Source: an uncultured Bacteroidales bacterium (lineage in GTDB: Bacteria; Bacteroidota; Bacteroidia; Bacteroidales; Bacteroidaceae). Taken from it: DNA of 64,000 nt. The DNA is taken from positions 22,991-86,990 of the forward strand of contig CACZXN010000002.1 in assembly GCA_902785075.1 (NCBI GenBank), written 5' to 3'. The position numbers and the translations under genes are program-made. Of this stretch, positions 37,671 to 57,716 are shown piece after piece. Numbering within the stretch: position 1 is the first letter of the stretch; each line of letters opens with the position of its first letter. Under the pieces are notes generated by a model, which made no database searches, was not told where the DNA came from, and saw nothing but the letters and a program-made list of their open reading frames with translations.

Positions 37671-37709
37671 CCTCTCAATGCAGGCATAGTACGTCAGCCA
37701 AAATACTCG

Positions 37710-37774
37710 AGTACGCCTTAAGGCGCACTCGAGTGCGCCCTAAGGCGAACTGCAGTGCGCCCTAGGGCGCACTA
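37710..37774. repeat. 65-bp palindrome-chain repeat, copy 1 (inverted partner at 55215-55279)
   Basis: AGTACGCCTTAAGGCGCACTCGAGTGCGCCCTAAGGCGAACTGCAGTGCGCCCTAGGGCGCACTA is the exact reverse complement of 55215-55279. Confidence 0.95.
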
Positions 37775-37952
37775 ATCTCCGCACCTATCGTTTCGTATCG
37801 AAAGCTTGGAGAACAAATGCGAAATGCGCTTAAAGTGCGAAACAACCCCTATCTTGCTATACGAGGAGATGGTTTTCTGCTACCTTCGAACCATTATACC
37901 AATCGCTTGGTCGATTTTGCCGAAAATATTTTGTAGGGTCGGTCAGATGTTG

Positions 37953-37960
37953 TAACTTTG
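37953..37960 (+). promoter_or_regulatory. -7 box TAACTTTG upstream of the M16 peptidase gene
   Basis: Consensus match, 113 nt upstream of the ATG at 38074. Confidence 0.45.
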
Positions 37961-38073
37961 CACAGCTAATTATAGAATTTTAGCTGTTGAAGTGAAAAAA
38001 ACACCATTTTTCTGTAGTGAATGATTGTTATTTGCGTCAAACGGACAAAAAGCTTTTAATGTTAAATAAAGAA

Positions 38074-40902: not shown

Positions 40903-41124
40903 ACATCGAACAGATAACAACTTTCTTTATTATATAATAAGGTGTGGTGAGAAACTGCACCTTATTATTTATATAGCAGCACCAATAGGAATTTTTCTAT
41001 AGCGTTTAGGAATTCCCCTATTTTTCCCAATCTTTTTATTTTTGCTTTAAACCTTTTAAACTCCCAACTATCAAAAGGATGCAAAGTTGAAATTCATTAT
41101 TAACAATTCAAACATTAAAGCATT

Positions 41125-41640
41125 ATGAAAAAATTAGTTATCGCACTCGTAGCAATGATGATTACTACATGCAGTTTTGCTCAGGCTCCTCAGGGCATGG
41201 GCGGTGGTATGAGACAGTTCAACCCAGAAGACATGGCTAAGCGTCAGGCAGACCGTATGAAGGAAACTTGTGGCCTCAACGATGAGCAGTACAAGAAAGT
41301 AACTGAATACTACGTAGAGCAGTCAAAGGCTCAGATGGAGCAGATGCAGAAGATGATGCAAGGTGGCCAAGGTGGTGGTCAGATGGACTTCCAGGCTATG
41401 CAGAAGCAGATGCAGGAGCGTCAGGAAGCTCAGAACAAGTTCTTGAAGGGTGTGCTCACAGAAGATCAGTTCAAGAAGTACGAGAAGGCTCAGGAAGAGC
41501 AGCGTCGTAACTTCCAGGGATTCGGTGGCGGTCAAGGCGGTCCTCAGGGACAGCGTCCACAAGGTCAGCGTCCACAGGGACAGCGTCCTCAGGGTGGTGG
41601 CTTCCCAGGCGGTGGCTTCCCAGGCGGCGGTCAGCAATAA
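41125..41640 (+). CDS. periplasmic LTXXQ-motif (Spy/CpxP-like) protein with Q/G/M-rich repeats
   Basis: Signal peptide ending SFAQA. LNDEQYKKV and LTEDQFKKY match LTXXQ-like motifs. C-terminal GQRPQ x3 and GGFPGG x2. Confidence 0.6.
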   Translation: MKKLVIALVAMMITTCSFAQAPQGMGGGMRQFNPEDMAKRQADRMKETCGLNDEQYKKVTEYYVEQSKAQMEQMQKMMQGGQGGGQMDFQAMQKQMQERQEAQNKFLKGVLTEDQFKKYEKAQEEQRRNFQGFGGGQGGPQGQRPQGQRPQGQRPQGGGFPGGGFPGGGQQ

Positions 41641-41660
41641 ACTCAATAAGTATATAAGGT

Positions 41661-41708
41661 TCTCAAAGACTTTGAGAGAGGTCAATGCAGTTAGCATTGA
41701 CCTTTTTT
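41661..41708 (+). terminator. tandem hairpins plus T-run
   Basis: TCTCAAA gac TTTGAGA, then GGTCAATGC agtta GCATTGACC, followed by TTTTTT (41703-41708). Confidence 0.75.
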
Positions 41709-41821
41709 ATTCACTGATACCCTCGAACTTTAAAGAAGAGAAAGAAAATGATAGCATAAAGATAGAAAAAAAGCAAATTGTAAATAGTAAATGCTAAATA
41801 ATTCGTATCTTTGCACTCAAA

Positions 41822-43348
41822 ATGAAGCAAAGCTATATGGAACAGAATCTTTTGATATATAACACACTGACTCGGCAAAAAGAATTATTCCGCCCACTCA
41901 ATGCACCACATGTAGGGATGTATGTATGCGGACCTACTGTATATGGTGATGCCCACCTAGGACATGCACGCCCAGCTATTACGTTCGACATCGTATTCCG
42001 CTACCTACAGCATCTTGGCTACAAAGTAAGATATGTGCGCAATATTACAGATGTAGGACATTTGGAGCATGATGCCGATGAAGGAGAGGATAAGATAGCG
42101 AAAAAAGCACGTTTGGAACAATTGGAACCAATGGAAGTGGCTCAGTATTACACTAACCGTTTCCATGATGCAATGGCTGCCTTGAACGTATTACCACCAT
42201 CTATCGAACCACATGCTACTGGTCACATCATCGAACAGGAACAATTGGTACAGGAAATCCTCGATAACGGATTCGCATACGAATCGAACGGTTCTGTCTA
42301 TTTCGATGTAGAAGCCTACAATAAAAAACATAAGTACGGAATCCTATCCGGACGTAATCTCGATGACATCATCAACAACTCACGCGAGTTGGCTGGTGTC
42401 GGCGAAAAGAAAAACCAAGCAGACTTTGCCTTGTGGAAAAAGGCATTACCCGAACATATCATGCGCTGGCCATCAAAGTGGAGCGACGGATTCCCTGGAT
42501 GGCACTGCGAGTGCACAGCAATGGGACGTAAATATCTTGGAAACCATTTCGACATACATGGAGGCGGTATGGACCTCATCTTCCCACACCATGAATGCGA
42601 AATAGCACAGGCGGTTGCCAGCCAAGGTGACCAAATGGTACACTACTGGGTACACAACAACATGATTACCATCAATGGGCAAAAGATGGGAAAGAGTCTT
42701 GGGAATTTCATCACCTTGCAAGAATTCTTTGACGGCAGTCATAAGGATAAAGATGGTAACGAAATGCTGACACAGGCCTATGCACCTATGACAATTCGAT
42801 TCTTCATCCTTCAAGCTCACTACCGCAGTACTGTTGACTTCAGCAACGATGCACTTATCTCGGCAGAGAAAGGCCTGGAACGATTGATGGATGCTCACAA
42901 AGCATTAAAATCTATCCAACCGACAAACGAAGGAACTGTAGATATGGCATTTGTTGATGACCTACGCCAAAAATGCTATGAAGCATTGAACGACGATTTC
43001 AACACCCCAATAGTTATCAGCAACCTTTTCGATGCCACACGTGTCATCAATCAGATTGTCGACAAGAAAGCCACTATTACAGCTGCCGTTTTGGAAGAAC
43101 TTACCAAGGTATTCGAGTTGTTTACCTTCGATCTGTTAGGCTTGAAGTCATCCGTAAGCGGACAGAATGGAGGCGCTGCACGCGAAGAAGCATTTGGTAA
43201 AGTGGTGGATATGCTACTTGAGCAACGTATGAAGGCAAAAGCCAACAAGGACTGGGCTACTAGCGACATGATTCGTGACCAATTAGCAGCATTAGGCTTC
43301 GAGGTTAAAGATACGAAAGACGGATTCACTTGGAAACTGAACAAATAA
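41822..43348 (+). CDS. cysS: cysteine--tRNA ligase
   Basis: HIGH motif ([10 protein letters not shown]) and KMSKS variant (QKMGKSLGN). 508 aa. The -7 box TATCTTTG at 41806-41813 makes the ATG at 41837 (MEQNLLIY) a plausible true start. Confidence 0.9.
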
Positions 43349-43388
43349 TCTCTATAGCACTAAAGAATAAGAACCTATTCCAAATGAT

Positions 43389-43589
43389 ATGAGCAAATTC
43401 CAAAGAATACTACAAAAATCACAGAAGATACTGATGTTCACATCCTTATTCTTCTTGGTCGTTTGCTTAGGTGCCTCGATTTGGGCCGCTAATGTCTTAA
43501 ACGATAATTCTCTGTACTTATACTCAGCAGTTTTTGTACTAGCAATTATCTGGTTCAGTATCACCATCTATCGAAGTTATAAAAAATAA
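43389..43589 (+). CDS. small two-TM membrane protein (hypothetical)
   Basis: 66 aa with two clear hydrophobic helices (MFTSLFFLVVCLGASIWAA and LYSAVFVLAIIWFSITIY). Sits between cysS and a strong terminator. No other support. Confidence 0.4.
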   Translation: MSKFQRILQKSQKILMFTSLFFLVVCLGASIWAANVLNDNSLYLYSAVFVLAIIWFSITIYRSYKK

Positions 43590-43602
43590 GTGATGCGAAA
43601 AC

Positions 43603-43647
43603 AAAAATCCTCCCTTGAACGCTTAATTCAAGGGAGGATTTCTTTTT
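43603..43647. terminator. bidirectional intrinsic terminator
   Basis: 14-bp perfect stem, AATCCTCCCTTGAA (43606-43619) with TTCAAGGGAGGATT (43627-43640). Flanked by an A-run upstream and TCTTTTT downstream. Lies between convergent genes. Confidence 0.85.
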
Positions 43648-43656
43648 GGAAATTCA

Positions 43657-46600
43657 CTATTCCAATAATTTCATTAAAGTATTATCATCAGGATGTTCCG
43701 AATAGTAAGCGATAAACTCCTTAGGCGTCATACCAAAGTAATCACGGAACGTATTACTAAAATGAGAGTGAGACGAGAAACCAACTCGATAGGCTACTTC
43801 AGACACATTCACATTATTGTTTATCAAAAGGTATGCTGCTTGTTTCAAACGATAAGAACGAATGAAGTTATTTGGCGATACACCATAGCGGTCTTTCATT
43901 TTCCTATTCAGATGAACTCGGCTGATTCCTACTATGTTTGCCAACTCGTTCACTCCAAATGAGGAATCATCAAGGTTCTTCTTCAAACTCTCATTGATAC
44001 GTGCAAACAACTTATCATCAGCACTATCGATTGTTTTTTCTGTGTAGTCATAATCAACTTCTGTACGACGCATCTTACCCATCATTTTCTCACGTACCTT
44101 GATACCTTGAATAATTGCACTCTTCAGTTTCAACACATTGAATGGCTTACTGATGAAATGATCGACTTGCAGATTCAAACTATTTATCTCAGCCATATCA
44201 CTATTCTCGCTAGTCAGCATGATGATAGGGATACTATCCGTCTCAGGATTGGACTTAATTCGTTTGCTTAACTCAATACCATTTCCGTCAGGCATCCGAA
44301 TATCTGTCACAACAGCATCAGGGCGAGTCTTCAGAATCTCCTGCCAAGCTTCGTTACCACTATTAGCAGTAAACACGTTAAATGCATCGCTGATTTGCGT
44401 TTTTATGTAAAGGCACAAGTTCTTATCATCATCGACAACCAAGACCGTCTTCTTTGTTTTGTCAACATTGTCAGATTCTTCATCTGTTTCTTGCTCCATT
44501 TCTATATTTGCAAACAAATCATCCTTTGTTTGGAATTCAGAGTCTTCTTCGCCTCGGGGTGACAGTTCCTCTTCTGTTAGATGAATCTTATGTAATGGGA
44601 ATCGCAAGACAAACTCAACACCGTCTGGTTCCATATTATGAACATTTATAGTACCGTGATGTAAGTTTACGAGTTCGTTTACAAGATTCAATCCGATACC
44701 TGAGCCTATCGTCTCATTAGTCACATTATTTGCTTGGAAGAACCGTTCAAAGACATGAGGAATATCCTCCTCTGAGATATACGAACCACTATTGTATATT
44801 CTAATCTCGAACCAATCTATTGCATCTTCCATAAGACTCTTAGTCCTTACGAGTATACGTCCGTTTTCGGGTGTATATTTAAAAGCATTTGACAGAATAT
44901 TCGAAAGGATCTTCTCAAAATGTACCTTATCAACCCATAATGTCTCACTCGGATTGAGGTGGTCGATACGATAATCGATATTCTTGGCTTTCGCATATGA
45001 TGAGAAAGAATCAAACACATCCTTCGAATAGTCGTTGAAATTCACTTCCGAGAAATGAAGATGGAATTGTCCATTATCAATTTTACGTATATCAGTTATC
45101 TGTTTTACGGTCGTAATCAAACGGTCACAATTCAATTTCATAACATTATACATTCCCAACAGACCTTGATCAGTGGTCGAAGCTATCAATTGGGAAAGTG
45201 GGGAGACAATCATCGTCAACGGAGAACGGAGTTCGTGAGCAATGCTGGTAAACATCCTTAATTTAGCTTCTTTCAGGTTTTCTTCCTGTCTGACTGCCAA
45301 CAACAACTGTTGCTGACGTTTCCGCTCCGCATAGATTCTAAAGCCAAAATAGCCAAGAATAAAGAGTACAATGAAATAGGTTAACCATGCAGCGACAGTA
45401 TTGTACCATGGTTGATGGATATTGATTAGCAATGTCTTTTCTATAGCAGATTGTTCGTTGTTCTCCAAATAAGCTTTAAGATGAAGCTTATATGAACCTG
45501 GCGGCAGGTTTGGATAATTAGCCTCCAGGTCAGCACTTGCAAGATGCCATTCTTGGTCATACCCTTCAAGATAATATTGGAAGCGCACTTGATTTGGAGT
45601 TGCAAACTCAGGAACACCAAACGATACTGCAACAGAGTTTTGATCGTGCGACAAAGATAGTTCCGACAGAGCAATTACATTGGCATTCATCGCATTCTGA
45701 TGCTTAAATGGTATATAGCGGATAGGCGCTCCATTAATCCTCACAGACGTAAAGCTAATATCATGAATCAATTTCTTCGGCACTCTCATCAATGTCGCAT
45801 TAAACTTGATGATTCCATTATCACCACCAAATACAATATCATGCGAAGGGGTCATAACGTGAGCATTACGATGGAACTCTCCAATATAGTATCCGTCAAA
45901 CGATGAATAGCTATAGGACTTCATCGATTGCTTGTCAATACGCATGACCGATTTTGATGTTGTCAGCCAAATATCTTTGTCAGCAACTTCAATTGATTTA
46001 ACATTCTCTTCAGGGAGAATCTCAAACGACTCGCCATTCTGTATATTATAAGAGATAAGCCCCTGATTCGTTCCTACCAATAGGGTTTTGTTCATGATGG
46101 CAATACACTGAGGCATCAGGATACTCGATTTAGGGAATTTCACTTCCTCACCTTTCTTGGTTTCGATGTTATAAGAGAAAATACCTTGTGCAGTTCCTAT
46201 CCAAAGTGTACCAAAGTCATCACAACATAGCGAATAAATCCACCCATTGAACGACATCGTAGAAAATAGGTTGGTAACCGTTTTGTTAATCAAATCAACA
46301 ACAAAGACTCCCTGTCCATTCGTACCGACAAACAACAAGTCTTTTTGTGGATAGTATTTTAACATCATTACAAAACTGGTTGATAGGAACTTTAGCCAAT
46401 CTGGCGTCACAAACTGGTTTCCTTGTAGGTATTGTAAACCTCCACCATACGAACCTACCCAAACCGTATTTCGCTTATCGATAGCAATCGTTTGAACTAA
46501 AGAAGATGCTAATCCATTAGAATAGGGTGTAGTGGTTTGGTTTCTTCCTTTAATTTCAAGTTTGAACACTCCACAGCCGTCTGTTCCTACCCAAAATGCA

Positions 46601-47715
46601 TGGTTGTCGTATGCAATAGATGTCACACTTGTTGCATTTAGTTTGTTGTCGTTTGGAGAGAATGCATAATAGCCAATCTCGTTTCTATTTCTTGGTACGA
46701 CAAACACTCCTTTCTGCGCAAACCCAATAATCAGATTACCCTCTTTGTCAGCCGCAAAGGATCTAACTTTGGCAAACTCGATATTCATGCTTGGATCATT
46801 ATAGTGGAATGACGACAACGTTTCCTCTGAAGTCATTTGCCACAATCCATGATTATCTGTTCCTACGAGTATTTTATTGTTCTGATCTTCAAACAAGGTG
46901 GTTATCGGCATCGGGTTGGTGAGCGCATTTGGTGTCGCTCTCAAGATTTTCTGCTGATTATCATATACCAAAATACCATGTCCCGTACCGAAATAAATAT
47001 TCTTGTTTTTATGGCTTTGGATTATAGAGGTGACATTATTAGTCATAAGAATACGATCCACATCAGGAGTGGTTTGATATGTTTGCAAAGTCATCGATTT
47101 CAGGTCAATCTTGAATACTTGTCGAAAAACCACACACCCCCAAAGATTACCATCTGAGTCAATATATATCTGTGAACAGAAAGGGAATGGGGCAATTTTT
47201 CGTAGTTTCCTCGTGATGACAGTATCTACTTCCTGTGTCTCTGTGTTAAAGACAAACAAGCCATTACCTTCAGTCGAAATCAATTTCATATCAGGTTCTA
47301 TATAATCAATGATATGATTCACAGAATAACCCATTACAGAATCCTCATCCACACTCAGTATCTTATGCTCGAGGGTGCAATTTCTTCCGTTCAACAAATA
47401 CAGACCATTACTCGTTGCTAACCAATACTGGTCGTCTCGAAATTCTACAACCTTTTTATAAGCATTAATAGCACTATGATTAGGGAATAGTTTTGTAACA
47501 TCATAAAAATGGGTACCATCGAACACGTTTATTTCTGAAACACAGGAAATCCATGCCAGTCCTTTTGAGTCAATATCTACAGAATACATGTCGCTGGAGG
47601 TCAAACCTGATTGTGTTGTGTAAAGTCTAGAAACTTGCGCAAATGTAACATTGCAGATTGGTAACATCAAACATAATACAGCAAATTTATGAATGATTAT
47701 TGAAAAGTATTTCAT
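43657..47715 (-). CDS. hybrid two-component system sensor kinase/response regulator (HTCS) with AraC-type HTH
   Basis: 1352 aa. Signal/anchor, periplasmic beta-propeller-like repeats and one TM (AAWLTYFIVLFILGYFGF). HisKA (FTSIAHELRSPLT), HATPase (GSGIGLNLV), receiver (VLVVDDD...DIRMPDGNG). C-terminal AraC HTH (SHSHFSNTFRDYFGMTPKEF). Confidence 0.9.
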   Translation of the reverse strand: MKYFSIIIHKFAVLCLMLPICNVTFAQVSRLYTTQSGLTSSDMYSVDIDSKGLAWISCVSEINVFDGTHFYDVTKLFPNHSAINAYKKVVEFRDDQYWLATSNGLYLLNGRNCTLEHKILSVDEDSVMGYSVNHIIDYIEPDMKLISTEGNGLFVFNTETQEVDTVITRKLRKIAPFPFCSQIYIDSDGNLWGCVVFRQVFKIDLKSMTLQTYQTTPDVDRILMTNNVTSIIQSHKNKNIYFGTGHGILVYDNQQKILRATPNALTNPMPITTLFEDQNNKILVGTDNHGLWQMTSEETLSSFHYNDPSMNIEFAKVRSFAADKEGNLIIGFAQKGVFVVPRNRNEIGYYAFSPNDNKLNATSVTSIAYDNHAFWVGTDGCGVFKLEIKGRNQTTTPYSNGLASSLVQTIAIDKRNTVWVGSYGGGLQYLQGNQFVTPDWLKFLSTSFVMMLKYYPQKDLLFVGTNGQGVFVVDLINKTVTNLFSTMSFNGWIYSLCCDDFGTLWIGTAQGIFSYNIETKKGEEVKFPKSSILMPQCIAIMNKTLLVGTNQGLISYNIQNGESFEILPEENVKSIEVADKDIWLTTSKSVMRIDKQSMKSYSYSSFDGYYIGEFHRNAHVMTPSHDIVFGGDNGIIKFNATLMRVPKKLIHDISFTSVRINGAPIRYIPFKHQNAMNANVIALSELSLSHDQNSVAVSFGVPEFATPNQVRFQYYLEGYDQEWHLASADLEANYPNLPPGSYKLHLKAYLENNEQSAIEKTLLINIHQPWYNTVAAWLTYFIVLFILGYFGFRIYAERKRQQQLLLAVRQEENLKEAKLRMFTSIAHELRSPLTMIVSPLSQLIASTTDQGLLGMYNVMKLNCDRLITTVKQITDIRKIDNGQFHLHFSEVNFNDYSKDVFDSFSSYAKAKNIDYRIDHLNPSETLWVDKVHFEKILSNILSNAFKYTPENGRILVRTKSLMEDAIDWFEIRIYNSGSYISEEDIPHVFERFFQANNVTNETIGSGIGLNLVNELVNLHHGTINVHNMEPDGVEFVLRFPLHKIHLTEEELSPRGEEDSEFQTKDDLFANIEMEQETDEESDNVDKTKKTVLVVDDDKNLCLYIKTQISDAFNVFTANSGNEAWQEILKTRPDAVVTDIRMPDGNGIELSKRIKSNPETDSIPIIMLTSENSDMAEINSLNLQVDHFISKPFNVLKLKSAIIQGIKVREKMMGKMRRTEVDYDYTEKTIDSADDKLFARINESLKKNLDDSSFGVNELANIVGISRVHLNRKMKDRYGVSPNNFIRSYRLKQAAYLLINNNVNVSEVAYRVGFSSHSHFSNTFRDYFGMTPKEFIAYYSEHPDDNTLMKLLE

Positions 47716-47755
47716 ACAATTCTTTGATTAGTCTTCTTTAAATAGTAATGCACTG

Positions 47756-47939
47756 CAAAGTTAATACATTTTCAGTATTTCAAAAAGTAAATAAGCAAAT
47801 TCTTCTATAAAAATTGTAAAAAATGTAACAAATAACGCAATTTGACAATAACTAATGGCATTATATTGTTTAAAATGCAAAAAACTCTTTCAAATTTGAA
47901 ACATTGGTTTGGCGCTATAAATTAAAATTTATACCTTTG
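47756..47939. promoter_or_regulatory. AT-rich divergent promoter region (HTCS and T9SS cargo gene)
   Basis: CAAAGTTA at 47756-47763 is a reverse-complement TAnnTTTG box for the HTCS. TACCTTTG at 47932-47939 lies 80 nt upstream of the ATG at 48020. Confidence 0.5.
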
Positions 47940-48019
47940 TACTTGGAATCCAAAATATATGACATTTTCAAATTTATATAACACCAATTTATTAATTTTT
48001 AATCAAAACAATTTTACGA

Positions 48020-51000
48020 ATGAAAAAAATTCTACTTTGTGCAGCATTTACAATTATAAGTTTTGCTGTATTTGCTCAAGATGTTCCAGACGCTTCTCAA
48101 TGGAAGGTTGGTGACGATGTTTCAGAAGCAGTAGGCTTTGGAAACTTGAGTTTCGAAAACGATCCTATGGATTATTGGAAAGTTAACTGTACGAAAGGCA
48201 ATCCAAATCAAACTGGTGGATTGTTTGAAATCTACGATGGATCGGGTGATGTGTTCCAATACCTTTATTTACCTGCAGGTATGTATGAGTTAAACTGTCA
48301 AGGTTACTATCGTTTTGGTACTTCTTGGGATGCGGACCCAAATTCTTACAACGATGGCACATGGAAGAACTTGTCTTTGCTCTATGCAACAGCAGGAACC
48401 TATGACATCACAAGCGAAGAATTCACTGAATCAGGTACTACATTCTCTAATCCCTTGATGCCTCGTTTGTTCGAAGGCGTAATGGAGCAGTTGTATGTTG
48501 GTCCAAAGGAAGGCGAAGATGGTTATCCTGGTTGGGATATGTCTGATGGAACATATTTGGATGGTCGTTGGGGACCTTGTTCTATTCCAGGTTCACTTGT
48601 TTGGTTTGCTTCAGACAAGTATCTTCCATTCGAAAGCGATGAAGATGAAACAGTATATAACAAAGTTACATTCTTTGTAACTGAAGCTTCCTGGGTCAAG
48701 GTTGGTGTTCAAAAGAATGAAACAAAAGATGCTGACTCTTTCATGGCTACCAACTTCCACCTTATTTATAAAGGTACAGCAGATGATGCAGCCAAGATTG
48801 CATTAGCATACAAATCACTTGAAATAGCACAGAAGAAGGCAGAAACGCTTGCTGACGAAATTATGGTTGATTATCAAGCTCTCGGCGCTATGCTTCTCGA
48901 TGCTATTATGGAGCTTGATTACGATGACACTACTGTTGAAGGTATTGAAGCTGCAACTATTGCTTTCAATGAATTATTCACCAATTACACTCAATACTAT
49001 CAAGAAGCAAAGCAACTTACGACAGCTATCGCCGCAATGGAAGAGTTGGCCGCAGCAACTGACTATGAAGGCAAGGAAGCTTTCCTTAAGGCTATCGATG
49101 ATGCTACAACTGTTGCTACAGCAACCGATTTTGACGCAGCAAGTAGCCCTGAAGCATATAAAGAAGCATATAACGCCTTGACAGAAGCAAGAGGTGCTTA
49201 TGTTTTGACTCGTCCTGCTATTGATGGTGTTTACAACTATTCTGACCTTATCAATCAACCATTCTTCTGCAACAATGAATTCAATCCAACATGGGATGAG
49301 GATTTGCAGCAGTATATCTTCAGCGATGAGATTGAAAGCAGTTGGTGTACTGTTACGGAAACTGGTTATAACGACTTGGTGAACGAACATGCTGACTGGA
49401 TTCCTATCTCTAGCAACGTAACTATCGCTTCAAGTGGTAATGATGAAGGTCGCTGGGTCATCAACTCAACTACTTGGCACGGGGGTGTTCCTGCTTCTGT
49501 AACTCTTCAGCACGGATATCCTGCTGTTGGTGGTTGGACCGCTGAGCCTACAGGCAATCCAGAACTTCTCCATCAGACAATAGTTAATCTGCCTAATGGT
49601 TACTATAGCATGAGTGCTCTTATGTGTAATGTACAGGCAATTTCTGATCTTCAGTATGTTTATATCGAAGGAACTGGTGGGGTACAGGAAAAAGCTAACC
49701 TAACCATGGGTGCCCAAGGATGGTGGGGCGGCTGGAGCCGTAACTCAATCTGGGAGAAACTTGAGACAGGTATGGTTGAAGTTACCGATGGTAAGGTTAC
49801 AATCGGTTCAAGCTCTGACTCATTCTATGGTGTTACAGGTTTCCAACTCTATTACTATGGTGAAAAGCCAGACTTCACAGCTATGATTCGTAAAAAACTT
49901 GAAGCCGTTTCTGAGGAAATGGAAAACCTTACATTCCCTGGTGACTTTACTTATGTTGAAGAACTGATGAAGACGATACCAGCTACAATCACTGGTTTCG
50001 AGGCATACGAGGCAGCAAATAAGACAATCGCAGAGATTTCTGAATACACAGCTACTGCATTTAATTATCTGAATAACTGGAATCTGGGCGACCGAATTGC
50101 AAATGCTCAAGTTAACTATGAACCAGATGCACCTGAATACAAGATTCTCGACAAGATGTTCGACTATTTCATGACTATCGGAACAAATGCAACTGATACT
50201 TATAAGACTGCTCAGGAGGCATCTGCACTTTATGACCAGTTAGAGGCTTATTTCACTTATCGTACTAAGGTTGCTGAATATGCTTCTTACTATCCTGCAA
50301 TCAATGATATCATCGCTGATCAGAACACAGGATTGATGGCTGGTATCACTTCAGAGAAGCTTGACAATTACACCAAGTCTCTCGAGGATGCAGAAGCTAT
50401 TGGTGCTGCTGCAGATATCGCTAAGATACTTGAACCTCTTGATTTGGACAAAGCTACTCCAGAGAACCCTGTTGACATCACACTGATTGTTAAAAATCCT
50501 ACATACGATGAAGGTAGTACAGGTTGGGAAGGAGCTATTACAGTAGATAATCGTCTCCACAATGCAGAGCGATTTAATACAAAGTTCGATGTTAGTCAAA
50601 CCATTAAATCTCTTCCTGCAGGATGCTACCTTGTAAAGGTTCAGGCATACTATCGTGACGGTGGTAGCGCAGGTGATGCAAACTCAGGCGTTTACTACAA
50701 TTGGAACGTAGCTGCCAACAAGAACATGGAATATTGGGATAACAAGAATGTTGAACTATATGCTCGCACAAATGAAGCTGAGCGCGTTGAATATGTTCAG
50801 TCACTTGCAAGTGTTCAATATACAGAACCTGGTACTTACAGAATCTTCAATACAACTGACGATTCAAATATCGAACAGGTTGTCGATGAACATGGAAATC
50901 CTGTCTATGATGACGAAGGTAAGGAGGTATGGACAGATCCAGATACTCTTTGGTACACTTACGACGATGCAGAAGTCTCTTGGACATTAGACCAGCGCGT

Positions 51001-51358
51001 TTATATTATCGAAGAGGGTGATACTATTGCAACTTACTACTATCCAAACTCTATGGAAGGTGCAAATGCCCGCTTCAACAAGACTCCTGAGGCATATCAG
51101 AACGAAGTTGTCATTATGGTTGAAGAAGGTAATAATCTCACATTCGGTATCCGCAAGTCAACAGAAATCGACAACGACTGGTGTATGTTCGACAATTGGA
51201 AACTCTTCTATCTCGGCAAGGACACACCTGAGGCTATCAATGAAATTGCAGGCGAAAAGAATGCTGTCAAGGCTATCTTCAACCTTGCTGGCCAACAGAT
51301 GAACGGTCTCCAGAAGGGTCTCAACATTGTTGATGGAAAGAAAGTGTTTGTGAAGTAA
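48020..51358 (+). CDS. large secreted multi-domain protein with T9SS C-terminal sorting domain, unknown function
   Basis: Signal MKKILLCAAFTIISFAVFAQ. Three internally repeated modules. C-terminal ...AIFNLAGQQMNGLQKGLNIVDGKKVFVK resembles a type A Por/T9SS CTD. Confidence 0.8.
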   Translation: MKKILLCAAFTIISFAVFAQDVPDASQWKVGDDVSEAVGFGNLSFENDPMDYWKVNCTKGNPNQTGGLFEIYDGSGDVFQYLYLPAGMYELNCQGYYRFGTSWDADPNSYNDGTWKNLSLLYATAGTYDITSEEFTESGTTFSNPLMPRLFEGVMEQLYVGPKEGEDGYPGWDMSDGTYLDGRWGPCSIPGSLVWFASDKYLPFESDEDETVYNKVTFFVTEASWVKVGVQKNETKDADSFMATNFHLIYKGTADDAAKIALAYKSLEIAQKKAETLADEIMVDYQALGAMLLDAIMELDYDDTTVEGIEAATIAFNELFTNYTQYYQEAKQLTTAIAAMEELAAATDYEGKEAFLKAIDDATTVATATDFDAASSPEAYKEAYNALTEARGAYVLTRPAIDGVYNYSDLINQPFFCNNEFNPTWDEDLQQYIFSDEIESSWCTVTETGYNDLVNEHADWIPISSNVTIASSGNDEGRWVINSTTWHGGVPASVTLQHGYPAVGGWTAEPTGNPELLHQTIVNLPNGYYSMSALMCNVQAISDLQYVYIEGTGGVQEKANLTMGAQGWWGGWSRNSIWEKLETGMVEVTDGKVTIGSSSDSFYGVTGFQLYYYGEKPDFTAMIRKKLEAVSEEMENLTFPGDFTYVEELMKTIPATITGFEAYEAANKTIAEISEYTATAFNYLNNWNLGDRIANAQVNYEPDAPEYKILDKMFDYFMTIGTNATDTYKTAQEASALYDQLEAYFTYRTKVAEYASYYPAINDIIADQNTGLMAGITSEKLDNYTKSLEDAEAIGAAADIAKILEPLDLDKATPENPVDITLIVKNPTYDEGSTGWEGAITVDNRLHNAERFNTKFDVSQTIKSLPAGCYLVKVQAYYRDGGSAGDANSGVYYNWNVAANKNMEYWDNKNVELYARTNEAERVEYVQSLASVQYTEPGTYRIFNTTDDSNIEQVVDEHGNPVYDDEGKEVWTDPDTLWYTYDDAEVSWTLDQRVYIIEEGDTIATYYYPNSMEGANARFNKTPEAYQNEVVIMVEEGNNLTFGIRKSTEIDNDWCMFDNWKLFYLGKDTPEAINEIAGEKNAVKAIFNLAGQQMNGLQKGLNIVDGKKVFVK

Positions 51359-51422
51359 TTTGTTTCTGACCTATAGGTCTAGGACTCATGAGACCTATAA
51401 GTCCTATAACTACTACATCAAG

Positions 51423-51459
51423 GTGCTCAGGCAGGCAATGTCTGGGCACTTGTTTTTTT
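51423..51459 (+). terminator. intrinsic terminator after the T9SS cargo gene
   Basis: GTGCTCAG (51423-51430) pairs with CTGGGCAC (51442-51449), including one G-U pair. Followed by TTGTTTTTTT. Confidence 0.65.
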
Positions 51460-51586
51460 CACATATAATGTGGCCATTATGGAATGCGCACTTATGTTAC
51501 AATCCATTAACGTTGCTATATATGCTTAAGAAAAGGGTCCCTCTTATATATAAAATAAGGTGTAAGAATCGTTTTTCTGCAAAAAA

Positions 51587-51614
51587 ATGATAAATGATAA
51601 ATGGTAAATGGTAA
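51587..51614. repeat. heptanucleotide tandem repeat (ATGATAA x2, ATGGTAA x2)
   Basis: Four contiguous 7-bp units read directly from the sequence. They lie 9 bp upstream of the TAACTTTG -7 box at 51623-51630. Confidence 0.9.
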
Positions 51615-51648
51615 TTATTTCGTAACTTTGCCCTGCTAAATATGTTTT

Positions 51649-52488
51649 ATGGCACAAAATGATGTTGATTTAAAGATAGATGTCGAAGCTATCGTCAAGA
51701 GCAAGGCGGGGAGTAAATACAAGTATTTCCCACGATTTATTGTTAATTGGCTCAAAAAAATCCTTCATCAGGATGAAGTGAACCGCTATCTTATGGGGCG
51801 TGCCAAAGGAAAGTTTGGACAGGATTTCCTTGATGAATGTGTGGCATATCTCGAAATGAATCTCGATGTCAGAGGGCTAGAGAAACTACCTTCGAACGAA
51901 GGCAATCGATACTACACCATCGTTTCTAACCATCCGCTGGGAGGTGAAGATGGTGTGGCCTTAGGCAGCATCTTGTGCCACAAATACGATAGCAAGATCA
52001 AGTATCTGGTCAACGATGTACTGATGAATCTGGAAGGATTAGCTCCGCTATGTATTCCCATCAACAAGACGGGTAACCAAAGCCGCAACTTCCCCAAGAT
52101 GGTCGATTTGGCGTTCCAATCTGAGAACAATGTGCTGATGTTCCCTGCTGGGCTTTGTTCGCGCAAGCAAAACGGAATCATTAGGGATTTGGATTGGAAG
52201 AAAACATTTATTAGCAAGAGTATCGAATACCAACGAGACGTGATTCCTGTGCATTTCTCAGGACAGAATTCAGAGCGGTTCTATCGCATTGCCAACATCT
52301 GCAAAGCATTGCATATAAAAGTGAATATCGCTATGTTGTTTCTCGTTGACGAGATGTATAAGAATGTAGGAAAATCATTTACCGTTACCTTTGGCGAACC
52401 AATTCCTTGGCAGACGTTCGACAAGTCGAAGTCGCATGCCGAGTGGGCACAATGGGTAAAGGATAAAGTATACGAATTAGATAAATGA
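51649..52488 (+). CDS. glsA: lysophospholipid/lyso-aminolipid O-acyltransferase (PlsC/OlsA-like; GlsA-like)
   Basis: 279 aa. Acyltransferase motif region SNHPLGGEDG and FPAGLCSR (PlsC block III-like). ATGA overlap with the downstream GNAT-type N-acyltransferase. Confidence 0.6.
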   Translation: MAQNDVDLKIDVEAIVKSKAGSKYKYFPRFIVNWLKKILHQDEVNRYLMGRAKGKFGQDFLDECVAYLEMNLDVRGLEKLPSNEGNRYYTIVSNHPLGGEDGVALGSILCHKYDSKIKYLVNDVLMNLEGLAPLCIPINKTGNQSRNFPKMVDLAFQSENNVLMFPAGLCSRKQNGIIRDLDWKKTFISKSIEYQRDVIPVHFSGQNSERFYRIANICKALHIKVNIAMLFLVDEMYKNVGKSFTVTFGEPIPWQTFDKSKSHAEWAQWVKDKVYELDK

Positions 52489-53495
52489 AAGAAATAATTG
52501 ATCCCATCAGCCGAGAGGTACTAAAATCGGAACTCACGGAAGACAAGCGTTTGCGATTCACCAATCGCAGCAATAACGAAATCTATATTGTCACTTGGCA
52601 GAATGCGCCCAATGTCGTGAAAGAGATTGGACGACTACGCGAGATTGCCTTTCGTGCGGCAGGAGGGGGAACAGGTAAGGATATGGATCTCGATGAGTTG
52701 GATGTATGCGACAACCCATACAAGCAACTGATTGTTTGGAATCCAGAAGAAGAGGAAATCATTGGCGGCTATCGCTATCTGTTGGGCACAGAAGTGGAAT
52801 TCGATGAAAAGGGACAACCTATTTTGGCTACCTCACACATGTTCCATTTTTCCGACACATTCATCCACGAATACCTTCCCTATACGGTAGAGTTGGGTCG
52901 TTCATTTGTGACATTAGAGTATCAAGCAACTCGCAGAGACACGAAAGCGCTGTTTGCCCTCGATAACCTGTGGGACGGTCTCGGAGCCTTGTCGGTTATC
53001 ATGCCAAACTGCAAGTATTTCTTTGGAAAGATGACCATGTATCCATCCTACAACCGTCGATGCAGAGACATGATTCTCTATTTCCTTAACAAGCATTTCC
53101 CCGACAAGGACAACCTGATTGTGCCGATGAAACCGTTAAAAATCGAACACGACCCAAAGGAATTTGAACAGCTGTTCTGCCACGATGACTTCAAGGACGA
53201 TTATGTCATCCTGAATCGTGAAATACGCAATAACGGGCTCGACATACCCCCATTGGTAAATGCTTACATGAGCCTGTCGCCAACGATGAAGATGTTTGGT
53301 ACAGCTATCAATGACGGGTTCGGCGATGTGGAGGAAACAGGCATCTTGATTGCTATCGACGAAATCATCGAGAGCAAGCGTATCCGCTATATCGACAATT
53401 TCGCAAAGGAACATCCCGAACTGGTCAATCAATCGCTCAAGGTGCTCTCTCACATTACCTCTGGAGTCAATAAAGTAAAGAAAAGAACAAAATAA
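52485..53495 (+). CDS. glsB: GNAT/hemolysin-like amino-acid N-acyltransferase (OlsB/GlsB-like)
   Basis: 336 aa. RLREIAFRAAGGGTGK block, as recalled for OlsB-like N-acyltransferases. The gene pairing matches the Bacteroidales glycine-lipid locus. Confidence 0.6.
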   Translation: MKEIIDPISREVLKSELTEDKRLRFTNRSNNEIYIVTWQNAPNVVKEIGRLREIAFRAAGGGTGKDMDLDELDVCDNPYKQLIVWNPEEEEIIGGYRYLLGTEVEFDEKGQPILATSHMFHFSDTFIHEYLPYTVELGRSFVTLEYQATRRDTKALFALDNLWDGLGALSVIMPNCKYFFGKMTMYPSYNRRCRDMILYFLNKHFPDKDNLIVPMKPLKIEHDPKEFEQLFCHDDFKDDYVILNREIRNNGLDIPPLVNAYMSLSPTMKMFGTAINDGFGDVEETGILIAIDEIIESKRIRYIDNFAKEHPELVNQSLKVLSHITSGVNKVKKRTK

Positions 53496-53626
53496 GACGG
53501 CTAAGCAAAAAAGAAGGAAAACAAAAAAATTAGAAAAAAATGCAATTTTTTTTGCATATTGTTTAAACCTTTTTCATTTTAGTCAGTCATAGCTTTAAAG
53601 TAGTAAATAGGTGTTTATCATTTTTT

Positions 53627-53667
53627 AGAGGACAATGGCACGAGAGTGTAATTATCCTCTTTTTTTG
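53627..53667 (+). terminator. intrinsic terminator 130-170 nt downstream of glsB
   Basis: AGAGGACAAT (53627-53636) pairs with ATTATCCTCT (53651-53660), one mismatch. Followed by T7 (53661-53667). Confidence 0.6.
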
Positions 53668-53707
53668 TCTAAATAAATCAGTAGTTAATCATTAAAAATT
53701 AAATGAT

Positions 53708-55051
53708 ATGATGGATTGGAATCAACTTATCTCAAACAAACGACTGGGGCAGGAAGACCTTCATTACCAGAAGAAAGACGACCGTACGGAATTTCATCGC
53801 GACTACGACCGCCTGATATTCTCCTCACCCTTCCGCCGTCTTCAGAACAAGACACAGGTGTTTCCGCTTCCAGGCAGCATCTTCGTACACAACCGCCTGA
53901 CTCATAGTTTGGAAGTAGCAAGTGTGGGACGTTCGTTGGGCGATGATGTCGCACGCCGATTGTCCGAAAAACACCCCGAACTGAAGGACTCTCACCTCTC
54001 TGAATGCGGATCTATCGTCAGCGCTGCCTGTCTTGCCCACGATATGGGTAACCCTCCGTTTGGGCATTCTGGCGAGCGAGCCATCGCTGCCTACTTCACA
54101 GAAGGGGCTGGTCAGAAATATCGTGAGTTGGTGACTCCAGAACAATGGAAAGACCTTGTTCTCTATGAAGGAAATGCGAATGCTTTCCGCTTGCTCACCC
54201 ATCAGTTCAAAGGACGTCGTCCAGGTGGATTCGTCATGACCTATTCCACCCTAGCATCCATCGTGAAATACCCCTATCCAGCCATTTATGCTGGCGAAAA
54301 GCAGAAATTCGGCTTCTTCCAAAGCGAGATAGATACCTATCGCAAGATAGCCAATGAATTGGGAATCCTCCAAACGAACGATAACGACTCACAACCCCGA
54401 TTCGCACGCTATCCGCTAGTTTATCTGGTAGAAGCAGCGGATGATATCTGCTACGAAATCATGGACATAGAAGACGCACACAAACTCAAGATACTCACCA
54501 CAAAGGAAACCCAAGAACTGCTGATCAACTATTTCGATGAAGAGCGGCAGAAGAGCATCAAAAGCGTATTAGAAAAAGTGACAGATGTCAACGAACAGAT
54601 TGTTTACCTGCGCTCATGCTGCATAGGAGCCTTAGAAGCAGCATGTGTTGATGTGTTCATCAAGAACGAAGAAGCCATCCTCAACGGTACCTTCGACGGT
54701 TCGCTTGTCAAGCATATCGAAGGACGTATCGGCGATGCTTACAAGGCGTGTGAAAAAACCTCCTACGACCACATCTACCGTAGTAAGGACGTGGTTGACA
54801 TCGAGTTGGCTGGTTACAAAATCATCAGCACCCTTATCGACCTTTTTACCACAGCAGCTATGACGCCTGACGGAGCCTACTCCAAGCTGTTGCTCGAACG
54901 AGTATCGAAACAATACGAAGTCATCGATGAAGGCGAAAACAATGTCTATCGCCGCATCATGGCTGTACTCGACTACATCTCAGGCATGACTGATGTTTAC
55001 GCTCTCGATCTTTTCAGGAAAATCAACGGAGAGAGTATCCCAATTATCTGA
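53708..55051 (+). CDS. dgt: dGTP triphosphohydrolase-like HD-domain protein
   Basis: RLTHSLEVASVGRS and CLAHDMGNPPFGHSGE (HD motif). DRLIFSSPFRRLQNKTQVF N-terminal block. 447 aa. Confidence 0.85.
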   Translation: MMDWNQLISNKRLGQEDLHYQKKDDRTEFHRDYDRLIFSSPFRRLQNKTQVFPLPGSIFVHNRLTHSLEVASVGRSLGDDVARRLSEKHPELKDSHLSECGSIVSAACLAHDMGNPPFGHSGERAIAAYFTEGAGQKYRELVTPEQWKDLVLYEGNANAFRLLTHQFKGRRPGGFVMTYSTLASIVKYPYPAIYAGEKQKFGFFQSEIDTYRKIANELGILQTNDNDSQPRFARYPLVYLVEAADDICYEIMDIEDAHKLKILTTKETQELLINYFDEERQKSIKSVLEKVTDVNEQIVYLRSCCIGALEAACVDVFIKNEEAILNGTFDGSLVKHIEGRIGDAYKACEKTSYDHIYRSKDVVDIELAGYKIISTLIDLFTTAAMTPDGAYSKLLLERVSKQYEVIDEGENNVYRRIMAVLDYISGMTDVYALDLFRKINGESIPII

Positions 55052-55214
55052 TGAGAACGGATAAAAACACGATGAAATGGGGAAAAACACAATAAAAACT
55101 GCAAAATACGATGAAACGGAAAAAAAACGATGAATACGTTAAAAAACAAAGAAAAACGGGCATATTTCTCAGTTTTTCTCCAAACGCACGTATTAGATAT
55201 ATAGGTGCTGAGAA

Positions 55215-55279
55215 TAGTGCGCCCTAGGGCGCACTGCAGTTCGCCTTAGGGCGCACTCGAGTGCGCCTTAAGGCGTACT
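55215..55279. repeat. 65-bp palindrome-chain repeat, copy 2 (inverted partner of 37710-37774)
   Basis: TAGTGCGCCCTAGGGCGCACTGCAGTTCGCCTTAGGGCGCACTCGAGTGCGCCTTAAGGCGTACT is the exact reverse complement of copy 1. Confidence 0.95.
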
Positions 55280-55514
55280 ATTTCAAGTGGCTAATGACGA
55301 TAGAATGATTGCTTCGACCTGAAGGTTGGAGCATTTTTTGACTTTTTATCCCAAACTTTCCACCCCCTCAAGAAGCTGAAAAGGGCACAAAACATAGGCC
55401 ACAAGCTATTATAAGTTGGTTTTTTGTAATTTGAAACTTTCCACCCCTTTTGCTTGTTCGGAACAGAAAAAACTTGTAACTTTGCAGCCGAAAATAATAA
55501 TTATTTGCAAATTT

Positions 55515-56753
55515 ATGAGAACATTTGGTATTTCAGTGGTAATGATGTGTTGCTCTGTTTCGTTTGCACAAGGTCCTACAAATTATGACTATCCAAGCGA
55601 ATTGGCAATCCCCATTCACGAGTGGCTTGTACCTTGTGAAGATGTGTGTAAAGTACAAAAAGAAGGAAAGCTCGACTTCAGGACGGAGAAATTTCGCCTT
55701 TTAGTTCCAGAAACTGCGAGCTTCGGATTTGTGTATGATCCATCGATGTTTCGAGAGTGTGCTTTGGTGTATGATTCTGTAGCTCATTCACTTGTCTATA
55801 GCATGCCTGGAACTGAAAAAAAGTACGATTCCATCGAGATGCACTATCTTAGCGCCAAAAGACGAGATATTGAGAAGAAGCCAATTATTCATGGGAACGA
55901 TACTATCAAAGTCGTCGAAAGTGTATTTTTGGATGTTCCTATCAATTATAAGGAACCAGAAGTAAGCAGGTTTTCTGTCCCAATCTCTGATGCTGCAGCA
56001 AAGAGTTTGCGACAGTTATGGGACGGAGCCGTGAAAACAGCTAAGATACCTGAGGAACCTTGGATCAGGTTCAACGATGAGAGTTGGGATTTGAATTATT
56101 ATATGCCACCAATGGTGTTGGATGGAGAGACGTATGACATTTTCATAGGCAAGAGATGTGCGAAACAATGGGCGCCTCAGGTTACAGGAAAGGTTCAGAT
56201 GCTGCTGATGTTCTTAGACCAACTAGGCGAAGCCGTGCATCAGGAAAACAAGGCAAGGGTGGATTCACTGGTAATGGTTTCAGAGTTTTTCGCACCATTG
56301 TTCAAATCAAATAGTTACAATCCCGAGGGACCTCATTATGCACGAGATAAGCAGATAACACCCAAGACCCATCTCAGCCAATTGGACGAAACGCAACGAA
56401 ACAACTATCTCAGAAACAAGGCGCTTGAGGTAGTGAAAATGTTTTCGAATGAATCAAGATCTAAGACAAGTGTAGAAATCACTGGAATACAGACACTTAA
56501 CCCAAACTACTCTTTATCGCCAGAAATGCGAGCATGTTACGGCAGACAGTTCTATGAGGTTATCATTCGTTATGACGAAGAACTACATGTTGATGTGAAA
56601 TGGCCGTATAAGGCAAAAGTTGCGATATGGGAAAGCGACGGAGAGCCAATGGGTGTGGTATTCGGCAACAAATGGGGTCATCATTTCTTCGCAAATCCGT
56701 ATCGTGAATGGGTAAGTCACGAACCAACACAACTAATGAGTATTCCACGTTGA
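55515..56753 (+). CDS. secreted hypothetical protein
   Basis: The ATG at 55515 follows a TAACTTTG box (55477-55484). Signal MRTFGISVVMMCCSVSFAQG. 412 aa, no recognisable motif. Confidence 0.6.
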   Translation: MRTFGISVVMMCCSVSFAQGPTNYDYPSELAIPIHEWLVPCEDVCKVQKEGKLDFRTEKFRLLVPETASFGFVYDPSMFRECALVYDSVAHSLVYSMPGTEKKYDSIEMHYLSAKRRDIEKKPIIHGNDTIKVVESVFLDVPINYKEPEVSRFSVPISDAAAKSLRQLWDGAVKTAKIPEEPWIRFNDESWDLNYYMPPMVLDGETYDIFIGKRCAKQWAPQVTGKVQMLLMFLDQLGEAVHQENKARVDSLVMVSEFFAPLFKSNSYNPEGPHYARDKQITPKTHLSQLDETQRNNYLRNKALEVVKMFSNESRSKTSVEITGIQTLNPNYSLSPEMRACYGRQFYEVIIRYDEELHVDVKWPYKAKVAIWESDGEPMGVVFGNKWGHHFFANPYREWVSHEPTQLMSIPR

Positions 56754-56828
56754 TGGAAAACGCCCAATAATCATCATTAACAAAAAATGAGGAATAATCG
56801 CATTTGTTCTGTAAAAAATACAAAAAGT

Positions 56829-57716
56829 ATGAATAGTTCTATACATAAGATGTTACAGCATTTGATTGCTTGCCTGTTTGTTTCCTTCATCACAATAAGT
56901 GCGCAAGCTACAGGTCAGGAAGGTGATATCATCACCATCGAAGGCACAGAATGGAACCTGATGGGAAAACCCATCGATTACGATTCCGTACTTTATCATC
57001 GACTGTTGGATATTTTGCCCAAAGACAGATCATATTCAACAGCCAACTGGGATGGCTACAAAGCCTATTGGAGCATCCGAAACGACTACCTATGTCTTGA
57101 CCGCATCGAGGTAGAATTTTATAATGCAGAAACGCGAGAGAGACGGACAGCCAATATCCCAGAGGCTGATTTGCAACGAGTGTTTGGCAAGTATTCGAAG
57201 CCACAAGGCATCGTAGCTTCGTGGTTCAATAGGGACATTAGGGCCACTAGGGGCAAACTGCTATACTATGTTCACGACGATTACTTCCGCAACTTGGAGT
57301 ATGAACAAATCCTGACTATCAAGCAAGGGAAAATCACTCGTCGACAATCCTATCACAATAAGGTTGTCATAGAGGAAGGTTTTGACTTTAATATGGTTAA
57401 AGGACAGGAGGATATCCATCGACTCTTCCCTCTCCATACGCAATATTATCCCGAGTTGGCTGGCAGTAGGCGAATCGTTATTACCATCTCAAAGGTGAAA
57501 TTGGACGCGAAAGGCAACCTTGTGGATTGTAGCGTATCTGTATCAGGCAAGGATGGCAAAATAGAAGGTTTGGCTCAAGAGGTGAAAACGCTTCTGAAAC
57601 AAACCCACCCTTGGAAGACACTCTATATCAACGGCGAATATGTATCAACCCGCTACCACGAAAGTATTAAGTTTCCTTACAATCTGAAAGAGAAGAGCGT
57701 CAATTCTGCCAAATAA
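56829..57716 (+). CDS. secreted hypothetical protein with possible TonB-C-like C-terminal domain
   Basis: Signal-like MNSSIHKMLQHLIACLFVSFITISAQA. The C-terminal roughly 80 aa (VKLDAKGNLVDCSVSVSGKDGKIEGLAQEVKTLLKQTHPWKTLYINGEYV) resembles the TonB_C pattern. Confidence 0.55.
   Translation: MNSSIHKMLQHLIACLFVSFITISAQATGQEGDIITIEGTEWNLMGKPIDYDSVLYHRLLDILPKDRSYSTANWDGYKAYWSIRNDYLCLDRIEVEFYNAETRERRTANIPEADLQRVFGKYSKPQGIVASWFNRDIRATRGKLLYYVHDDYFRNLEYEQILTIKQGKITRRQSYHNKVVIEEGFDFNMVKGQEDIHRLFPLHTQYYPELAGSRRIVITISKVKLDAKGNLVDCSVSVSGKDGKIEGLAQEVKTLLKQTHPWKTLYINGEYVSTRYHESIKFPYNLKEKSVNSAK

Follow-up and report, generated by a model that had tools for sequence, protein, structure and literature searches.

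A 22-bp phased palindromic array beside a DUF6078 gene and its copies at other sites in a rumen Bacteroidales bacterium

Anatomy of the repeat pair

The stretch of DNA studied here, called the window throughout, comprises 64,000 nucleotides from an uncultured rumen Bacteroidales bacterium of the Bacteroidaceae/Prevotella group (contig CACZXN010000002.1) and contains two copies, A and B, of a short repeat, which lie in inverted orientation on either side of a 17.4-kb interval. Copy A is an intergenic array between a gene for a DUF6078 protein and an M16 peptidase gene. Copy B is also intergenic and is located between the dGTPase gene dgt and a gene for a 412-aa protein of unknown function. The interval encodes the M16 peptidase, a DUF4890 protein, CysS, a hybrid two-component regulator, an acyltransferase and GNAT pair and the HD-domain dGTPase, which is broadly the gene content given in an earlier note on this DNA. 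As that note had also stated, no recombinase or transposase family was found in the open reading frames (ORFs) flanking A or B, and no Y1_Tnp domain is present in the window. Neither GC content nor skew changes abruptly at the repeats. No Rfam family reached the gathering threshold in the window, nor was any tRNA or tmRNA detected; the region around copy B gave only chance matches to miRNA hairpins (E > 0.07), and the region around copy A gave nothing.

Direct sequence comparison confirmed that the cores of the two copies (Table 1) are exact reverse complements over 65 bp, and an inverted-repeat search placed them within arms of 79 nt (37710-37788 and 55201-55279) that are 97% complementary. 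The earlier note had missed the internal structure of this 65-mer, which consists of three 22-bp units arranged in tandem, head to tail (period 22 in Tandem Repeats Finder). Each unit is a 20-bp palindrome, AGT[A/G]CGCC-N4-GGCG[C/A]ACT, or in shorthand AGTRCGCC-N4-GGCGNACT, followed by a 2-nt linker (CG or GC). As one unit follows directly on the next, every linker is the centre of a further palindrome, GGCGCACT-CG-AGTGCGCC, and the junction palindrome GNACT-NN-AGTNC recurs every 22 bp, or about two helical turns. The palindrome AGTGCGCC-N4-GGCGCACT occurs six times in the 64-kb window with at most three mismatches, always inside A and B, against a chance expectation of 0.04. A profile of the whole element retrieved no further copy from the window, decayed copies included. 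The intact units open with AGT[A/G/C/T]C, close with ACT and lack a GTAG or CGTC tag at the palindrome end, CGTC being present in decayed units only. No terminal inverted repeats were found outside the array at A or B. The core of copy A is predicted to fold into stable hairpins (z = -4.3), and a second z score among the predicted array hairpins is -5.3.

The similarity between A and B continues beyond the core. On the inward side 39 of 60 positions are identical, with an alignment score of 14 as compared to -9.0 +/- 4.2 for shuffled sequences (maximum 6), that is about 5 standard deviations, and the motif GCACCTAT-N17-TTGGAGAA is unique to these two stretches, the tails of A and B. The inward similarity of about 60 bp described earlier is thereby upheld. 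The claimed outward similarity of about 40 bp fared less well, since its 25 identities in 43 positions lie only about 1.5 standard deviations above the shuffles and are not significant alone; what stands is that the outward stretch at site A holds a decayed fourth unit, in common with a third copy, C, described below. The element can thus be viewed as a core of two to four units with conserved flanks of about 30–60 bp, the core lying within some 125–165 bp of weaker homology. Adjoining the tail of copy B, and reaching back to the stop codon of dgt, are about 4.9 copies of a 19–20-bp direct repeat, GATGAAACGGAAAAAACAC (55050-55148), which is kept in related strains.

Table 1. Positions of the two arrays and their adjoining features in the window.
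Feature	Positions	Strand	Remarks
DUF6078 gene, 144 aa	37236..37670	+	Pfam PF19555, E = 3.8e-34; copy A lies in its 3' flank
Decayed fourth unit of array A, AGTACGTCAGCCAAAATACT plus linker CG	37688..37709	+	Start of array A, 17 nt past the DUF6078 stop codon; homologue at site C is AGTGCGTCCGCTAAAATACT
Core of copy A	37710..37774	+	Three 20-bp palindromic units, 37710-37729, 37732-37751 and 37754-37773
Tail of element A, ATCTCCGCACCTAT...TTGGAGAACAAATGCGAAAT	37775..37834	+	Homologous to the tail of B
Tail of element B	55159..55214	-	Homologous to the tail of A
Core of copy B, orphan array	55215..55279	-	Three units; no DUF6078 gene adjoining
Outer flank of B	55280..55322	-	Weak likeness to the stretch from the DUF6078 stop codon to array A, not significant alone

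Orientation and conservation in related strains

The comparison of the two sites drew on some 30 contigs that cross one or both of them, taken from independent assemblies of bovine and other rumen DNA. The order is DUF6078-array-M16 in every contig that crosses site A and dgt-array-412-aa gene in every contig that crosses site B. At least four contigs (scaffold_809, Ga0247611_10000137, NODE_574 and scaffold_3126) hold both sites as arranged in the window. No inverted junction was observed among the roughly 30 contigs, which are consensus assemblies that a rare isomer could escape. In a species with 77% nucleotide identity the gene order around dgt is unchanged and site B is not alignable. In a related species whose dgt is 86% identical (L006 1800-3359, L008 1499-3160), the place of copy B is taken by an insertion sequence with a DDE_Tnp_1 transposase, immediately downstream of dgt.

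These results bear on one of two readings offered by the earlier note, in which RecA-mediated recombination between the repeats inverts the 17.4-kb segment, or has inverted it and left them as a scar. With 65 bp of perfect identity, the repeats are longer than homologous recombination requires at minimum. A polymorphism common to A and B, described below, suggests sequence exchange, and some assemblies break or gap at the array. However, every A and B junction has the orientation seen in the window, also where one contig spans both sites, the order of genes around dgt persists in the 77%-identity species, neither skew nor GC content changes at the repeats, no recombinase gene is located nearby and the copies are accounted for by a family with members elsewhere. 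We consider the inversion reading largely refuted as far as a scar is concerned, and give it almost no credence overall. The synteny comparison among strains, which the note had suggested, brought out variation in unit number and a 72-bp deletion.

Site B contains three units in at least 12 other contigs and two units in three strains, which have lost the middle one. The assembly breaks at the array in two cases, with an N gap in one scaffold and a contig end inside the array in another (L135, L151). At site A of locus L017, 72 bp are absent, corresponding to the three intact units and six bases, while the decayed fourth unit is retained. L017 was considered as an empty site, that is as an insertion polymorphism, and this was rejected because the homology between A and C spans both end points, which indicates a secondary internal deletion. 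The same locus, which is 80-99% identical to the window, shows a larger difference: the M16 peptidase gene is followed directly by dxs (L017 7168-7281), and a block of 16.9 kb (window 40907-57813), reaching from the DUF4890 gene to a 295-aa gene and including cysS and copy B, is absent from this spot, as is array A. L017 further contains a truncated TrkA_N gene, followed by small phage-like genes and an HNH gene.

The array was shown to be more strongly conserved than its flanks. Among the 10–11 strain alleles per site, 3 of 128 array positions vary, as compared to about 10% of the flanking intergenic positions. All three are the fourth arm position or its mirror, position 17, which is the one arm position that varies family-wide. 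The array of a strain with 93% identity (L141) is identical. Four contigs have identical A and B copies, and in NODE_574 the two differ by 1 nt. An A/T polymorphism at position 17 of unit 2 occurs at A in some strains and at B in others; the contigs that carry the T variant at one site end before reaching the other. This shared polymorphism fits either gene conversion between the copies or selection.

Arrays beside DUF6078 genes and at other loci

The window DUF6078 protein is identical on 22 contigs. In the genome labelled 'Clostridiales bacterium H07648', a 144-aa DUF6078 protein, 51% identical to that of the window, is followed by a five-unit array that opens 69 nt after the stop codon and has its first in-register unit at 89 nt. 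This adjacency prompted a direct test on the loci of further homologues. We found that six more DUF6078 lineages (P0243, P0269, P0263, P0280, P0261 and P0245) carry an array of two to seven units with a 22-bp period, 3–26 nt after the stop codon. Hence the window and the seven other lineages, with DUF6078 protein identities of 49–63%, all have a 3' array with AGT...ACT unit ends located 3–90 nt after the stop codon (8/8), a setting of copy A that the earlier note had not recognised. Tandem Repeats Finder, which makes no assumption about unit ends, recovered the 22-bp period in the window and in six of the seven others. As a control, we counted chains of at least three AGT-N14-ACT units at 22-bp spacing. 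None was present in 696 kb of unrelated non-Bacteroidales loci or in 30 kb of related loci; such chains occur in the window only at A and B, and in the DUF6078 loci only beside the DUF6078 gene.

The lineages have in common the 22-bp phase, the unit ends (AGT, usually AGTAC, ... G-N-ACT) and the junction palindrome. The inner arms are lineage-specific, with AGTGCGCC, AGTACTTC or AGTCCCNC. In another lineage, the number of units is three versus seven behind identical DUF6078 proteins. The genes next to DUF6078 vary by lineage and include those for a restriction enzyme, HNH, GmrSD and SWI2/SNF2 proteins, an AAA-ATPase with a PD-(D/E)XK nuclease domain, PfkB and the M16 peptidase, and the upstream neighbourhood differs even among strains with an identical protein. 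Directly upstream of DUF6078, two strains with the identical DUF6078 gene carry an IS200-like gene for a 151-aa Y1 transposase (L165 2381-2836, L166 249-704). The two transposases have a mutual identity of just 50%, an indication that they were inserted independently and do not form a fixed partnership; the upstream spot may be an insertion hot spot or reflect a recurring partnership. L166 has a further period-22 array (80-161) upstream of the transposase gene.

Arrays were also found away from DUF6078 genes. A metagenome scan that required two perfect units returned eight stretches, all rumen-like DNA, with sites A and B of related strains and a third locus, C, from the same rumen population (L143, L138). 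Copy C has the three unit variants known from A and B, with loops TTAA, CTAA and CTAG, together with a decayed fourth unit and the beginning of the tail, and is about 91% identical to A over about 100 bp. It is located upstream of a DUF2461 gene, and the other side in L138 is occupied by a divergent gene for an ABC-F-type ATPase. The element at C measures about 126 bp, and the adjoining DNA on both sides cannot be aligned between L143 (830-975) and L138, although the DUF2461 proteins are 98% identical; the element forms a homologous island where the surrounding DNA is variable or rearranged. TAGA is present at both ends of copy C and not at A or B. No DUF6078 remnant was detected beside B or C. 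A fourth type of locus (L137, L139) has only the array in common with A, B and C. Sites A, B and C make up about three loci in this population, a copy number that is a lower bound.

A genome scan was dominated by matches to unrelated classic GTAG repetitive extragenic palindromic sequences (REPs) of GC-rich bacteria, which differ in look. Among the matches listed, the 22-bp architecture was seen in Prevotella sp. MA2016, RGIG8115 and RGIG10051, and a Bacteroidaceae metagenome-assembled genome (MAG269) had three copies of an element of about 150 bp. H07648 has arrays of five to eight units on at least 10 contigs. Its one named protein homologue is from Muribaculaceae (60% identity), and this, together with the presence of DUF6078, a Bacteroidales family, suggests that the label 'Clostridiales bacterium H07648-L1' (CAVGTD01; L023 and nine further loci) is probably wrong. 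Spread across phyla was rejected and the genome was treated as Bacteroidales. All Prevotella-type arrays lie between called ORFs, in one case (L093) between convergent genes. The array at L137 is overlapped by an ORF that was called too long and whose true start was read as lying beyond the array; several arrays at the GC-rich H07648 loci are overlapped by long ORFs that were taken as spurious. Searches with the element gave no match in plasmids and phages (blastn) and a single chance match, inside a coding region, in viral contigs, and a literature search for the repeat sequence gave none.

At three loci from two genomes (L023 4699-6429, L059 2285-3871 and L101 1121-2734), the gene just downstream of the array encodes a protein with AAA-ATPase_like (PF09820) and PD-(D/E)XK (PF08011) domains, which is more often than expected for a chance neighbour. 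In Prevotella sp. RGIG10051 (L118, 2216-4597), a gene for a 260-aa protein resembling the REP-associated tyrosine transposases (RAYTs) is flanked by four copies of a 26-nt palindrome, GTAACAGAGGGACGGTTCTTTTGTTA. A tandem repeat block with a period of about 42 bp and one 22-bp array lie near this gene, so that the intergenic region resembles a repeat-rich 'junkyard'.

The second reading in the earlier note, a dispersed family of the REP or MITE (miniature inverted-repeat transposable element) type, holds in so far as copies exist at other loci and in other genomes. It does not appear to hold as an ordinary high-copy REP family in this species, where the dozens of copies envisaged as one outcome were not found and the roughly three known ones come without a tag, terminal inverted repeats or a RAYT gene. 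A related explanation is that the array is a selfish hairpin repeat, similar to REPs and their clusters, the bacterial interspersed mosaic elements (BIMEs), or to palindrome-associated transposable elements (PATEs). It would be moved in trans by a transposase of the RAYT or IS200-type Y1 (HUH) class, the 3' flank of DUF6078 would serve as the preferred target or source and the DUF6078 protein would be uninvolved. The units are indeed palindromic and extragenic, with alternating half-sites as in BIMEs, and the lack of terminal inverted repeats and of a clear target duplication is what Y1 transposition predicts. The multiple copies in H07648 and MAG269, the Y1_Tnp gene directly upstream of DUF6078 in one lineage and the RAYT-like gene of L118, 680 bp from an array, are also consistent with it. 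However, the RAYT-like gene is flanked by its own 26-nt palindrome and not by the 22-bp array, Y1_Tnp is absent from the window and from the other Bacteroidales loci examined, the GTAG/CGTC tag is missing and the copies found in this species are few. In addition, the fixed spot of the array past the DUF6078 stop codon in all eight lineages, with units specific to each lineage, is hard to obtain through target preference alone. We regard this explanation as unlikely.

Another alternative is that the array acts only locally, as a structural RNA or DNA element that would terminate the transcript of DUF6078, or of dgt in the case of site B, or stabilise its 3' end, and that the copies resemble each other through recent duplication. 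The short distance of 3–26 nt from the stop codon in most lineages, the very stable hairpins predicted above, the terminator-like hairpins flagged by a consensus scan within both A and B and the position of the L093 array between convergent genes would all suit such a role. However, array A is not followed by a U-tract on the sense strand, and no transcript ends at copy C, whose neighbouring genes are divergent. Furthermore, the variable arm position is Watson-Crick paired in only 5 of 13 Prevotella-type units and 3 of 49 H07648 units. Since this sole variable arm position is not compensatory, selection for a simple hairpin does not explain it, and hairpin covariation was rejected. The AGT and ACT ends and the 22-bp phase are kept while the inner arms change, which suggests sequence recognition rather than structure alone. 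A purely local structural role thus appears quite improbable.

Two further repeats of the window are located outside the DUF6078 and dgt loci. A separate palindromic tandem array with period 21, about 2.9 copies of GTTGCAGGTCGTGCAACATAA, is situated inside a 48-nt inverted repeat at 22419-22519, between the convergent genes 20071-22326 (+) and 22610-23314 (-). It is unrelated to A and B and looks like a composite bidirectional terminator or a member of another repeat family. Upstream of the DUF6078 region, a tandem pair of paralogous genes (31386-35794) contains direct repeats of 167–300 nt with 71–92% identity, spaced about 2.4 kb apart. The paralogous ORFs are of about 600 aa and match no Pfam family, and related strains have this region in rearranged form or with only about 90% identity.

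Interpretation and comparison with known systems

Based on the sequence comparisons, we propose that the 65-mers are two copies of one short non-coding element, with A as the resident array of the DUF6078 gene and B and C as orphan duplicates, and that the arrays would be recognised by a protein and copied between sites (probability about 0.6). Copies B and C carry the unit variants of A and have no DUF6078 gene or remnant, which suggests that they are orphan duplicates of the module in the 3' flank of DUF6078. The inverted orientation of A and B and the nine housekeeping-type genes between them are incidental. The strict adjacency to DUF6078, the retention of the phase and the junction core despite changing arms and the purifying conservation among strains of the species suggest that a protein recognises the array in a sequence-specific manner, and DUF6078 would be the prime candidate for it. 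The arrays may be copied or homogenised between sites by gene conversion or some other copy mechanism, and units may be gained and lost by slippage or hairpin-mediated deletion. Candidate origins of the orphan arrays would be gene conversion, the action of a Y1 transposase or duplication followed by gene loss.

It is also possible, though with the odds against it, that DUF6078 itself recognises its own 22-bp phased array and seeds or maintains the orphan copies. The protein would then be a Bacteroidales counterpart, unrelated in sequence, of RAYTs acting on REPINs (REP doublets forming hairpins) or of centromere- and iteron-binding proteins. DUF6078 forms a family of about 970 clusters at 50% identity, nearly all of about 144 aa, with five conserved cysteines. 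The AlphaFold model has a pLDDT (predicted local distance difference test score) of 79, with a confidently modelled C-terminal domain. No DUF6078 protein was found in viral contigs, and a literature search returned no mention of the family.

Several observations weigh against recognition of the array by DUF6078. The protein has no recognisable DNA-binding or nuclease fold, with neither a Foldseek match at E < 0.9 nor a sequence match in the PDB, and it matches nothing in NCBIfam, PADLOC or PHROGs. Two lineages (L154, L163) have units too diverged for Tandem Repeats Finder, and the AGT/ACT unit-end criterion, used for both the lineage arrays and the control counts, is partly circular. Array type and DUF6078 similarity do not simply run in parallel: lineages with AGTACTT arms have proteins more similar to that of the window than the H07648 protein is, and it is H07648 that has the same AGTNCGCC arms as the window. 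Finally, the adjacency could stem from co-mobility or a terminator role rather than from recognition.

REPs, BIMEs and REPINs accompanied by a single-copy RAYT gene are described in Nunvar 2010 (PMC2817692), Bertels and Rainey 2011 (PMC3116915) and Di Nocera 2013 (PMC3733652). With these systems the arrays share short extragenic palindromes that are clustered with alternating half-sites and short linkers, dispersed in clusters of variable size and tied to one adjoining gene, and the units fall in the 20–40-bp range of these imperfect palindromes. In RAYT systems, REPs flank the RAYT gene. Here no cognate RAYT gene flanked by the same repeats was found; the partner is DUF6078 instead of a Y1/HUH transposase, with the array only 3' of the gene. 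The array units are also 20 bp long, strictly phased at 22 bp and free of the GTAG/CGTC tag, and about three copies (a lower bound) in this species compare with dozens to hundreds of REPs per genome. As for PATEs, which derive from IS200/IS605, the arrays are hairpin-rich, have no terminal inverted repeats and no clear target duplication, and an IS200-like tnpA lies by DUF6078 in one lineage; however, no tnpA is present at or near the window copies, and the two versions of that tnpA differ at half of their residues.

Within Bacteroidales, the BrickBuilt MITE of Porphyromonas gingivalis contains, flanked by a leader and a tail, a spacer-less minisatellite of 23-nt units whose number ranges from 1 to about 23 (Klein 2015, PMC4596501). 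It has IS5-type terminal inverted repeats, GAGACCTTTGCA, and 19 copies per genome, differs in unit number from locus to locus and from strain to strain and also occurs as partial copies (PMC4596501). An intergenic minisatellite core of variable unit number between flanking segments is found here as well. However, the leader and tail of BrickBuilt are much longer, and palindromic units or a dedicated neighbour gene are not reported for it. Neither A nor B ends in GAGACCTTTGCA or in any other terminal inverted repeats of the kind that mark MITEs.

The likeness to binding-site arrays is of a different kind. Plasmid iterons and partition sites of the ParR-parC type consist of short tandem sites beside the gene of a small binding protein. 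The DUF6078 array similarly has three or more tandem sites at a phase of about two helical turns beside the gene of a small protein, with an architecture that is kept while the sequence is lineage-specific. In contrast to iterons and centromeres, it is chromosomal, has no partner ATPase or replication initiator and has orphan copies far from the gene, and its candidate binding protein has no known DNA-binding fold. REP/BIME/REPIN with RAYT would thus be the closest analogue in logic and BrickBuilt the closest in architecture within Bacteroidales. We class the array as an extragenic palindromic repeat associated with a gene, outside the REP, BrickBuilt, iteron and centromere families. The type III toxin-antitoxin systems (ToxIN-like), in which one transcript carries tandem RNA repeats and, immediately after them, the toxin gene, were ruled out because the array is downstream and orphan arrays come without a gene.

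The inverted repeats that bracket the 17-kb segment are ordinary in the sense in which they were first described, and no flipping was seen. The arrays do break or collapse short-read assemblies, as seen from the two versus three units, the N gaps and the contig ends, and they could serve as strain markers. For DUF6078, an uncharacterised protein that is widespread in gut and rumen Bacteroidales, the results provide a concrete hypothesis of function, namely that it may recognise the array. If true, this would be a possible second case, besides RAYT and REP, of a single-copy gene with its own repeat family.

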